From contig CP089276.1 in the NCBI GenBank assembly GCA_023920165.1, positions 1,984,001-2,048,000 of the forward strand: a stretch of DNA of 64,000 nt, written 5' to 3'. The notes below the pieces were generated by a model. That model was not told where the DNA came from and made no database searches. It saw only the letters and a program-made list of their open reading frames with translations. This stretch comes from Curvularia clavata (taxonomy: Eukaryota). A program made the position numbers and the translations under genes. Shown piece by piece: positions 35,290 through 38,200 of this stretch. Within the stretch, counting starts at the first letter, position 1. Every line of letters starts with the position of its first letter.

Positions 35290-38200
35290 TTATGCGACAA
35301 AGCTCTTGGTGAAGGTCTGGGCAACCTCCTTGAGCTTAGCCTCAAGCTCCTTGCTGAGAGCACCTTCCCGGTCGATCTGAGCAAGCATGTCGGACTCGTT
35401 TGATCGGAGGTGGGCCAGGAAGTCGGCCTCCCAGTCCAGGATCTTGTTAGTGGGGACGTTGTCGAGGAGACCGTTGATACCGGCGTAGATGAGAGGAACC
35501 ATCTCGTTGACAGCCATGGGCGAGTACTGCTTCTGCTTGAGGAGCTCGGTCAGACGCTCACCACGGGCAAGCGTCTGCTTGGTGGCGGCATCCAAGTCAG
35601 AACCGAACTGGGCGAAAGCAGCAACCTCACGGTACTGAGCCAAGAAGAGCTTCAGCGAACCGGCGACCTGCTTCATGGCCTTGACCTGGGCAGCGGAACC
35701 GACACGGGACACAGAGAGACCGACGTTAATGGCGGGGCGGATACCCTTGTAGAAGAGCTCAGCCTCCAAGAAGATCTGGCCGTCGGTGATGGAAATGACG
35801 TTGGTGGGAATGTACTAGATGAGTTAGCGTGGTTCGGAATCGGAATCGGAATCGAAGATGCAACACCACCACCACATGGCAGAATACCAGCAAGACGGCG
35901 ATAACGCCACCAAACGCGCTGGAAATGAGGAGAAAGGGAAGGAAAAGGGAATACGAACTGCGGACACGTCTCCTCCCTGGGTTTCAATCACAGGAAGAGC
36001 AGTGAGCGAACCACCACCGAGCTTGTTGTTCATCTTGGCAGCACGCTCGAGAAGACGGGAGTGAAGGCTGTAAAACGGTTAGCAGAACCCCAAAAAGGAC
36101 TGGGAAAAGGGAAACATGCTAGAAGACGTCACCTGGGTACGCTTCACGGCCTAGAATCAAAGAAAGTTAGCATGTGGAGATGTTGTGAGGGGGGGAGGGT
36201 ACGTACCAGGAGGACGACGGAGAAGAAGCGACATCTGACGGTAAGCAACGGCCTGCTTGGTCAAGTCATCGTAGATGATGAGGGCGTGCTTGCCGTTGTC
36301 ACGGAACCTATGGAAATTATGTTAGCAAATTGTGCAAAAAGTGGAGGGTGAAAAGAGGGTGTGAAGGATGAAGATTTCCAAGACCGCCAAAATGGGCATG
36401 GCGGTCACAATGCGATGTCGGAAAGAAGGGAGAGGGGGTTCTTTACCATTCACCCATAGAGCATCCTGAGAGGCATTGTCAGTAACGTGTGGCAAATACA
36501 GCATACTAAAAAACGCGCGAATGTGGGATGTAAAAAGACGACCTCGAGTATCTGTGGCAGATACAGCGTGCTGAAAAACAACAAATTGTGAATAATGAAA
36601 CAGGAAGAAAAAACACCTGTGGCAGATACATGGATGCGAAAAGTGTAAGAAACGAAAAAAGCGCCAGACGCTCCGAAATGCGCATTTTGGATTCCTAATC
36701 GAAGTCCTCTGGCGAGGACTCGTAGGAGATGTGGGAGTCTGACACGACGAAGTCCGACTCGTCCTGGTACTTGGACTTGGCCTTGGCCTTAGCCTTTGAT
36801 GCGCGTCTGAAGTTTGGCGGGCGCACGGGCTCCGAGTCGGAGTCAGATTCGGACTGAACCGTACAGTGTCTAGCATGGGGTCCTCGAGCTTCCAAGTTCG
36901 AGAGGCTCTAGAAGATACGGTATCTGCCCCAGGGCACCAGCGGATGCCGGATGCTGTCGACGCAATGTATGACAGCGGCGAAAAACACGGTCTGGAAGAA
37001 CTCCTCCAGGAACTTCTGGTTTTGGGCACCAGCAGAGCAAGGTCGTTTGCGTCTTGTGAAGCTATGAGCCATTGCTCTTACAATGCGATTTGGAAGAAGG
37101 TATCTTTCCTCGTTCTTGTAATGCTGCATGCGGGCATAAATCCCATAGCGAACATTGGTGCCATTTCTTCAGGTGAAAGTAGAGAGGCGGAATCGAGAGC
37201 TTTGATCTCGACTGTAGGGAATAGTAGAAGCATAGTCTTCCAGGACAACTACAGGGTCCTCTACTTCCGCTAGCAGAGAAGGAATAGAACAGAACGTTCA
37301 ATACTGTCTAGTGATGGTGGAGCAAAGGCATTGACCATCTTTAGTAGACCGTTGGTAAAGGTGATCAAGACCTCCGTAGGGCAGAACACCTCGTAAATAC
37401 TGTGCAAGTAGTGTTCGGCAGGGCGAAGTTAAGAACCAACCACAAAAAACATGTGGATGTAGCTGTTGAAATCGATCATTGCTGTGTCGTGGCAGACACC
37501 GCCGTCCGAATTGACGTCAGATCCAGTCGATTCCCTAAGTGGTAATGCCGGGATAGGAAAAGTTGGTTTCTGATTTCCATGCCATGTTGGCGCTGTTGTG
37601 GCGTATACAGTGGTTTGAATCGATGCTGGTTTCGAGCTCACCCGTAACCTTGAAAGTGGCGATATCTTGATGTCTCGTATGGCTGAGTGGCTTGTGGCGG
37701 ATACAGCTGCTCGAATTGATGTTGCTGGATTGGTAGCCAATGGGCAAGCCCGAGGGTGCTGTGGCGGATACAGCTCCTCTAACTGACGTCGCCGAATTGC
37801 CATTCAAGGAGAGTCTGAGAATACTGTGGCAGATACTGCTGTTCAGACCATAATATCGAATTGCCAACTGATCCGGAATGCTGGGTGTGCTGTGGCAGAT
37901 ACAGCTATGCGACGAATGTTCGTCGTGGATGAACCTCGCAAGGATGACTGCTGACAAGCACAAGATGCTGCGGTAGATACACCATTCCATGAACAGTGTC
38001 TACACTGTGCTGTGGCCCGGCAGATACCGCTGTTCAGCGGACATAGCAATCCTGGAGGAAGGCATGACTCGGCAGACACCGTCGGAGTCGACTGTCTGGG
38101 AGCCAGAATGCGTATTTCGGGCCCGAGAAAACAAAGAAACTAAGATGAAGATGCAGAACGAGAAAAGGAAATGCAATGCAGACAGCAAGAAAATACAACA

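Follow-up and report, generated by a model that had tools for sequence, protein, structure and literature searches.

Homing endonuclease genes are known from self-splicing introns and inteins. One such endonuclease, I-TevI, also binds an operator at its own gene, and in plasmids the repeated sites called iterons are bound by the rep gene product and serve autoregulation and handcuffing. Full-text literature searches, judged from their listings and the openings of abstracts, returned no account of such a gene residing within a spliceosomal intron of a protein-coding gene of the nucleus. Here we describe a candidate for such an arrangement in a 64-kb stretch of Curvularia clavata DNA (contig CP089276.1); the whole stretch is referred to as the window, and all positions are given within it. 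The minus strand of the window holds the nuclear gene for the alpha subunit of the mitochondrial F1-ATPase (ATP1), and one long intron of this gene, intron A, carries the relic of a nuclease gene placed between two arrays of a short core motif. Based on our observations, we tentatively suggest that the cores are cis-acting protein-recognition sites of a homing-endonuclease-like element of spliceosomal introns, now decaying, and that they most likely served the protein of the element's own gene family. We give this reading, which is drawn from sequence comparison, somewhat less than an even chance of being correct.

The components of the arrays are as follows (nt, nucleotides; ORF, open reading frame).

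36489..36632, plus strand: left array (3'-proximal), with three cores at 36489, 36554 and 36619, exactly 65 nt apart
37489..38030, plus strand: right array (5'-proximal in the transcript), with eight cores at 37489, 37598, 37694, 37761, 37826, 37892, 37970 and 38017
38069..38082, plus strand: doubtful ninth right-hand core, with 5/14 mismatches, not significant alone
36548..36564, no strand assigned: hairpin GTATCTG-TGG-CAGATAC, formed by one core and its upstream flank, with a 7-bp stem and a 3-nt loop
36917..36930, minus strand: inverted partial core with 3 mismatches, inside the relic, over the codons for PWGRY (family motif PW.R.D)

The core, GTGGCAGATACAGC, was scanned for allowing up to 2 or up to 3 mismatches over 14 nt. 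At the stricter setting it matched 10 times in the window against 0.44 expected, a count reached in none of 100 shuffles, and 8 of the 10 matches lie on the plus strand (36489, 36554, 36619, 37489, 37694, 37761, 37826 and 37892). The looser setting adds 37598, 37970 and 38017, giving 11 plus-strand cores (36489-38030), all within one intron; the rest of the window holds four matches on the plus and four on the minus strand, i.e. the chance level. A preliminary description of the window had noted about 12 cores in one orientation on both sides of the ORF, which agrees with these 11 and a twelfth (38069) that does not reach significance. The spacings along the plus strand are 65, 65, then 870, then 109, 96, 67, 65, 66, 78, 47 and 52 nt. 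The exact 65-nt period that had been reported for the left copies was measured again, as was the period of 65-67 nt for the four regular right-hand units (37694, 37761, 37826 and 37892, spaced by 67, 65 and 66 nt).

What distinguishes the arrays is the contrast between core and spacer. When all 12 copies were anchored on the core, the pairwise identity was 0.71 in a 17-nt block versus 0.29 in the spacers (random expectation 0.25), and between the left and right arrays it was again 0.71 in the core block versus 0.26 in the spacers. Over the array comparisons, identity ranged from 0.71 to 0.85 in the core and from 0.26 to 0.42 outside it, and a 17-nt block of such quality appeared in none of 10,000 column shuffles. 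These values bear out the earlier remark that the spacers are far more diverged than the cores and unrelated between left and right. The 65-67-nt phase is kept in both arrays despite the unrelated spacers. Saturated spacers, together with a retained core of 15-17 nt and a retained phase on both sides, therefore argue for selection on a short recognition site. Tandem Repeats Finder reported nothing on the arrays because their units are too diverged, and a profile of the four regular units gave hits at E<0.35 that were confined, within the window scanned, to the long ATP1 intron.

The individual cores depart from the consensus by 0-5 mismatches (mean 1.8, i.e. 13% divergence) with a Poisson-like spread, and the outer right cores (37970, 38017 and 38069) are badly decayed. 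Such a spread is compatible with sites that were identical at the death of the element and have decayed neutrally ever since, in agreement with a dead element; it is equally compatible with selection on mildly heterogeneous sites. In the transcript the core becomes GCUGUAUCUGCCACAG, which is pyrimidine-rich and ends in CAG. The spacers of the left array contain 46% T on the transcribed strand, and the 3' splice site lies 23 nt from the end of the last core of that array. In several units of the right array the core is followed by a secondary motif, tcGAAtTGAyGT.

Two further structures had been pointed out in the preliminary description. The hairpin at 36548-36564 does exist, and it is confined to one of the 12 core copies. 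The inverted partial copy placed near 36920 was found at 36917-36930; it is weak and only marginally unexpected, as about 0.1 such matches are expected by chance. It is the sole inverted core-like copy and overlies the family-invariant W and R codons. Within a single transcript it is the complement of the cores in the arrays and could form 11-15 bp with any one of them, which may be a coincidence; beside this potential pairing we note that the zinc fingers of the family (see below) are of a double-stranded-RNA-binding type. A further unit at 37453-37480, proposed from a hand alignment, was not recovered by the unit profile and was dropped, and a hairpin or covariation at GCTGT..ACAGC was rejected since the pairing is not retained across copies.

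The ORF between the arrays had been taken for a nuclease homologue, and this holds. A Pfam search with nine ORF pieces of the intron gave zero hits, and phmmer with the read-through 36695-37297 against 1.84 billion representatives gave only two, the 104-amino-acid (aa) protein P0002, which matches the tail alone, and a spurious repeat protein. The route to the family led through over-long public gene models of ATP1. Compared with the family profile, the relic was recognized by hhalign with a probability of 95.5% (E 1.3e-8) and by hmmsearch with E 1.7e-7, and the family protein P0125 matched it in a tblastn search of the whole window (E 2.7e-7). The relic can be aligned to the profile from position 45 to 202 (of 403), spread over three frames with stops. 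It was the sole match in the window when 13 family proteins were used in tblastn, and no second copy was found when the intron was compared with the window by BLAST. Its recognizable parts are the following.

37306..37398, minus strand: relic of the N-terminal region, profile positions 45-74 (hmmsearch of three frames with the profile of alignment A1, tblastn)
36923..37162, minus strand: relic of the GIY-YIG-like domain, profile positions 112-202 (hmmsearch, hhalign, tblastn)
37011..37061, minus strand: frame-shifted piece matching the family motif KTHTALLCWS (hmmsearch of frames)
36695..36907, minus strand: open acidic/basic tail of 70 codons and a stop, matching P0002 (E 4e-12)

The domain relic retains the conserved Arg and Glu and has lost the upstream GIY/YIG tyrosines: the region aligned to them reads VVL..STF and is followed by a TGA at about 37171. 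The frame-shifted piece reveals a pair of frameshifts inside the relic. The tail is the only part still open, and the zinc-finger region that precedes it in intact relatives is deleted here. Judged from its sequence, the nested ORF is thus a dead, frameshifted relic of a small fungal nuclease family. The tails and some N-termini of the family (P0138, P0139; also 36695-36907 in the window) contain hydrophobic-acidic motifs of the VIDLTS or DFVVSDS kind adjoining Ser/Asp runs and a Lys-rich patch, which we take, presumably by likeness only, for something similar to SUMO-interaction motifs and a nuclear localisation signal.

Intact members of the family are built from a nuclease domain of GIY-YIG-like type, a pair of C2H2 zinc fingers set far apart and an acidic tail. 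Among 5.8 billion proteins, 15 were found when the gene inserted in the over-long ATP1 models served as the query and 16 with the profile; the family amounts to about 16 protein clusters. Alignment A1, which comprises 11 members, shows G-V-Y (88-90) followed by Y-I-G (104-106), with Y90, Y104 and G106 invariant; R118 and E171 are present in 11/11 members, their putative catalytic role being read from position only. The two fingers lie about 57 residues apart in A1, zf-C2H2_jaz and zf-met of Pfam are matched by all 11 members, and the fold matches of the fingers are to JAZ, ZFa, U1C and Bud20. Pfam GIY-YIG (PF01541) was matched by 0/11 members at E up to 10, and likewise not by P0036, P0059 or P0038. 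The AF2 (AlphaFold2) model has a pLDDT of 70. The fold results agree with one another, and for residues 78-208 the GIY-YIG-type matches were the only globular ones: Foldseek matched UvrC (1ycz) with E 0.4 and TMt 0.51, and an Atlas lead to a GIY-YIG cluster scored 0.89, all below the caution lines of the tools. Members that stand alone, with a length of about 410 aa, come from metagenomes and from Parastagonospora nodorum, where they make up four clusters. The Exophiala xenobiotica member P0137 carries the name cpa2, which may reflect a host gene; the JGI name of P0125, 'ribosomal protein L37AE/L43A', is probably a zinc-ribbon artefact (PF01780, E 0.44) and was not taken as a host gene.

The best named relatives of the ATP1 gene itself are from Pyrenophora and Alternaria (96% identity), and on this ground its host is assigned to the Pleosporales. 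The relevant part of the gene is organized as follows.

36466..38365, minus strand: spliceosomal intron A of ATP1, 1,900 nt, with GT at 38365-38364 and AG at 36467-36466
36447..36465, minus strand: mini-exon (G)CSMGE(W), 19 nt, between intron A and intron B
36308..36446, minus strand: intron B, 139 nt, with a loose contig end at 36445

Intron A, which has a branch-like TACTGAC about 15 nt upstream of its AG, contains the arrays, the relic ORF and a pair of inverted arms (see below); the mini-exon and intron B lie outside it. It interrupts ATP1 between APFSG and CSMGEW, a conserved site in a conserved host gene. Its removal is seen in an RNA contig (run X22) that joins 36464 to 38365 and skips 1,900 nt with CT..AC ends, where the cut fits at +1; the contig continues into the next exon without a mismatch over 89 nt, the mini-exon side being only 20 nt long. 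In addition, the 550-aa database protein P0006, 99% identical over the query, reads across the ATP1 exon junction. The same RNA library, an oligo-dT metatranscriptome, yielded a 266-nt contig of depth 2 identical to the ORF relic (37111-37376), which may represent unspliced pre-mRNA, a relic transcript or DNA carry-over. A 1,568-nt DNA contig (run X15) offers a strain comparison: it differs at 5 places, none of them in a core, and this has no power on core conservation because only about 0.4 differences would be expected there. Parts of the stretch that had no coverage in the sequencing runs were not counted as evidence. Run X16 contains an approximately 82%-identical copy of part of the relic (37328-37522) with unlike sequence beyond 37522, and a single contig that leaves the window at 36485 and carries GTGACAAATGCAGT (11/14 to the first core) amid otherwise different sequence, a hint only; both observations point to a different organism in that run that carries a diverged relative of the element.

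The position of the element in related fungi was read from gene models alone, in which an ATP1 of normal length does not imply an empty intron. Family genes were found in the same ATP1 region, within a 20-nt neighbourhood, in at least six other genera. The models that place them there include those of Bipolaris, Didymella, Neocucurbitaria and Pyrenophora teres, and truncated ATP1 models point to a Parastagonospora element that probably sits in this region as well. The over-long models that read into the inserted gene measure 1,080 aa in Bipolaris maydis, 937 aa in Neocucurbitaria cava and 697 aa in Didymella sp., and in P. teres family forms are fused to the C-terminal half of ATP1. The relatives retain CSM or CSMGE(W) ahead of the insert, and in the truncated models of P. 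nodorum (15 and 7 member sequences) GEW is followed directly by intron sequence. Because of this, their element seems, on the evidence of the models, to lie in the intron after the mini-exon (B), 20 nt away from that of the window, which lies in the intron before it. One gene model of Alternaria alternata (P0142) joins a family member to ATP2 (F1 beta), of which it contains the C-terminal half, and the junction aligns with ATP1 residues 290/291, i.e. with the intron site of the window; according to P0142, the homologous target of a paralogous gene would have been occupied independently.

The locus of P. teres f. teres, split over two neighbouring gene models, provides the closest parallel to the arrays. 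P0045 consists of the N-terminal half of ATP1 and about 400 residues of repeats, and P0135 of the family gene, about 85 residues of repeats and the C-terminal half of ATP1. The repeats of the P0045 tail and of P0135 residues 350-481, downstream of the fingers, are related (E 1.6e-18); the gene thus lies between a long upstream and a short downstream stretch of repeats that share their orientation, which is also the arrangement of the window. A model of P. tritici-repentis contains the same repeat motif without the family gene (E 1.3e-6). The repeat-gene-repeat layout, as read from these models, is common to the window and P. teres, while the motif itself is not. Since the arrays flank a modular nuclease gene whose family carries a finger pair, and the same plan recurs in a second genus, we assign them to the element and not to the host; on this reading they are neither host sequence nor a random minisatellite. 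As a side result, the public Pleosporales models P0009, P0011, P0036, P0038, P0045, P0059, P0129, P0135, P0027 and P0028 are wrong at this locus through fusion to the nested gene, read-through of intron repeats or truncation at the intron.

The anatomy of the arrays, the differential conservation of their parts, the family membership of the ORF and the occurrence of the layout in a second genus are established. From these we infer the binding of a protein to the core, the identity of that protein and the effect of the binding, along the following lines. The element's gene would have encoded a protein with the modular plan of a homing endonuclease, in which a GIY-YIG-type nuclease is joined to two C2H2 fingers set far apart and to an acidic tail. 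Units of about 65 nt would have arisen in tandem on both sides of this gene, and in each unit selection would have held only a site of 15-17 nt, cTGTGGCAGATACAGC. The likeliest binder is the zinc-finger nuclease of the family, supplied by this copy when intact or by paralogues, which would bind in the surroundings of its own gene, either to the DNA of the element or to the RNA of the intron. Such binding might serve autoregulation or tethering, as modelled on I-TevI at its operator and on transposases and Rep proteins at subterminal repeats and iterons. With the gene now dead, the cores would be decaying, at 13% off the consensus.

An element-encoded protein as the binder had already been proposed in the preliminary description. 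The retained core and phase, the nuclease homology, the zinc fingers of relatives and the flanking repeats of P. teres speak for it; the binding itself is our inference, and the local copy cannot be the binder because its zinc-finger half and catalytic tyrosines are lost. Several further points weigh against the proposal that the cores are sites for the family's protein. Binding is predicted from sequence. The Pyrenophora repeats showed no similarity to the window units at E<0.25, and as the motif is not conserved between genera, co-evolution has to be assumed. The core is unlike the exon junction, the presumed target of the nuclease (best match 10/16; an operator-like mimic of the junction was rejected on the same count), and in both arrays the cores point in a single direction, which sets them apart from transposon ends. 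The family's fingers belong to a type tied by Pfam and fold matches to double-stranded RNA binders, not to classic DNA readers, and homing by this family is putative.

A broader version of the proposal is rather unlikely in our estimate, namely that the locus is the relic of an undescribed class of homing-type selfish elements in spliceosomal introns of nuclear housekeeping genes, the fingers of which bind lineage-specific arrays. Such a class would have settled in ATP1 at two places separated by 20 nt, and in ATP2 at the site homologous to them, and would unite a GIY-YIG nuclease, U1C/JAZ-like fingers and flanking arrays of a lineage-specific motif. By acting on the arrays, in intron RNA or DNA, the fingers might control the element's own expression or aid the removal of an oversized intron; the latter would amount to a maturase-like partnership for a spliceosomal intron.

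Apart from the arrays, intron A contains one long-range inverted pair.

38098..38120, no strand assigned: inverted-pair arm, 245 nt from the 5' splice site and just outside the right array
36673..36695, no strand assigned: partner arm, itself palindromic, between the stop codon of the relic and the left array

When the first 450 nt of the intron were compared with its last 450 nt, these arms were the best complementary 23-mer (19/23), a value reached in none of 200 shuffles, with a duplex energy of -27.3 kcal/mol. They enclose the right array and the ORF and leave the left array outside. The arm motif is near-palindromic and CCGAAATGCGCATTTTGG-like, and a third, weaker copy is present in intron B at 36387-36404. 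The pair may act as an RNA 'zipper' that shortens the intron for splicing, or it may mark the inverted ends of a DNA insert.

The pair is also relevant to a host-centred explanation, in which the cores bind a host RNA-binding or splicing factor on the pre-mRNA and help to remove a 1,900-nt intron from an essential gene (introns of such a fungus are typically roughly 50-150 nt long). By masking cryptic sites or compacting the intron, for example, they would be of use to the host, which thus keeps them after the death of the element's gene. This explanation shares most of the evidence of the one we favour, and the strand uniformity and position of the cores speak for it: they have a single orientation relative to transcription, are pyrimidine-rich with a terminal CAG on the RNA, and stand near both intron ends, the last of them at the distance from the 3' splice site given above. 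Moreover, the intron is cleanly removed in one RNA contig, the cores persist next to a heavily broken ORF, and the separate long-range pair suggests an architecture at the RNA level. On the other hand, the core matched no known factor motif, and the right array is not needed for bridging, because the long-range pair would loop it out. An orientation shared by two arrays through tandem duplication is only a 1-in-2 coincidence, and the mismatch spectrum of the cores fits neutral decay as well as selection. All in all, we regard splicing aids as unlikely.

The contrast between core and spacer is also what makes a non-functional minisatellite, i.e. an old tandem duplication whose core was kept by mutational or conversion bias or was simply picked as the best block, still less probable. 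Tandem repeats are common near low-complexity, repeat-prone regions, the acidic tails of the family are themselves repetitive, and the three outer copies are already badly decayed. However, uniform decay cannot yield a core that is shared between the left and right arrays amid spacers at the random level, and conversion tracts of about 15 nt are implausible. The column shuffles produced no equally good block, the phase survives in saturated spacers, and similarity is not spread over the whole unit, as is also reflected in the silence of Tandem Repeats Finder. A decayed coding repeat, which formerly extended the nested protein by a repetitive stretch or was translated by read-through from an exon, is suggested by the models of P. 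teres and P. tritici-repentis, which stay open through hundreds of intron-repeat codons (P0045, P0135 and P0009), by the downstream Pyrenophora repeats that continue the acidic tail of the protein, and by the plus strand of the right array, which reads VADTA..RIDV in several units. We consider it very unlikely: gene models can bypass stops via invented introns, the Pfam search was empty, and translation of the left array, which comes after the stop codon, would give a sequence rich in Phe, Leu and Ser and not an acidic one. Furthermore, the window cores fall in all three reading frames (spacings 65/67/65/66) with stops in each, and their conservation forms a solid 15-nt block without a three-base pattern; the earlier statement that protein coding does not explain the cores is upheld.

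Least probable of all, close to negligible, is a repeat-spacer array processed into small RNAs of about 65 nt from the excised intron, which the preliminary description had offered as its second option. The layout alone recommends it, with regular repeats, dissimilar spacers and one orientation within an excised RNA. It is disfavoured by the absence of an Rfam match at E up to 1, by the folding of 11/11 units, which on either strand is no better than that of shuffles (z -0.50 to +0.65), and by repeats that are non-identical and form a hairpin in only 1/12 copies; a repeat-spacer small-RNA pathway of this kind is not known in fungi. A pattern scan for two cores 61-71 nt apart returned 109 metagenome and 33 viral loci. 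None of these 142 contains a spacer relative or an extended match to the intron: in blastn the similarity to the intron did not extend past the core (best E 0.017, across 39 nt), and on inspection the loci were rejected as unrelated, being coding repeats of phages with a period of 66 nt, genes rich in Gly and Tyr, and satellites of 14-35 nt. Many of the phage contigs (viral L110-L142 and many of L001-L109) share coding repeats with this 66-nt period that contain GTGGCRGATAC (CCAAC..CCTGTGGCAGATACGCC..), a widespread 22-codon repeat unrelated to the fungal element. Upstream of the ATP1 start codon, at a distance of about 300 nt, the window has another repeat, the clean 16-nt tandem repeat GCTCATGTTGAACACA (39921-39989; 4.3 copies, 96% matches).

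Returning to the cores as recognition sites of a selfish element, the arrays supply a concrete handle, a candidate site of 15-17 nt for an intact family protein. If the family is mobile, it would represent a new route for spliceosomal introns to grow, persist and perhaps arise, and a natural sequence-specific nuclease aimed at the ATP synthase genes of plant-associated fungi. Its mobility would also account for the set of mis-annotated ATP1 and ATP2 gene models in public databases.

Five known systems can be compared with this locus, and in none of them is a GIY-YIG/zinc-finger gene flanked by motif arrays and at the same time lodged in a nuclear housekeeping gene as part of a spliceosomal intron. 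The GIY-YIG homing endonucleases of group I introns, such as I-TevI and I-BmoI, likewise join a catalytic domain to a separate nucleic-acid-binding module that includes zinc binding, their genes also reside within introns at highly conserved sites of essential genes, and degenerate copies fit the same cycle of invasion and decay. Their introns, however, are self-splicing and of phage or organelle origin, whereas that of the present element is spliceosomal and nuclear, in a protein-coding gene. Its binding module is a widely spaced JAZ/U1C-like C2H2 finger pair, its protein also has a long acidic tail, motif arrays flank its gene, and its homing is putative. The subterminal arrays of En/Spm (12-bp motifs of TnpA) and Ac (hexamers) resemble the present ones in that a short motif is repeated on both sides with unconserved spacers, and non-autonomous or dead copies keep the motifs. 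In contrast to them, the motif here has the same orientation on both sides and a transposase is absent; no target-site duplication was seen, including at the edges of the inverted pair 36673-36695/38098-38120, and this sole significant pair, unlike transposon ends, excludes the left array.

Plasmid iterons (P1 incC/incA, F ori2/incC) are also direct repeats on both sides of a gene, one array being longer, and they share with the cores a binding by the gene product that is here putative. They differ in being units of about 19-22 bp at helical spacing in bacterial replicons, compared with cores of 15-17 nt every 65 nt or so in a eukaryotic intron, for which a replication function is not expected. 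The VMA1 intein PI-SceI (VDE) and other nuclear inteins are, like the present element, selfish nucleases that occupy a conserved site in a nuclear gene belonging to the ATPase alpha/beta superfamily, and their removal leaves the host product unharmed; PI-SceI, though, is a LAGLIDADG enzyme and is removed at the protein level, while the element described here is removed as a spliceosomal intron. Finally, the introners of fungi and algae are mobile DNA that ends up as spliceosomal introns, but these are short, multi-copy and gene-free, whereas the element of the ATP1 intron is long, bears a gene and appears to be tied to conserved sites in ATP1 and ATP2.

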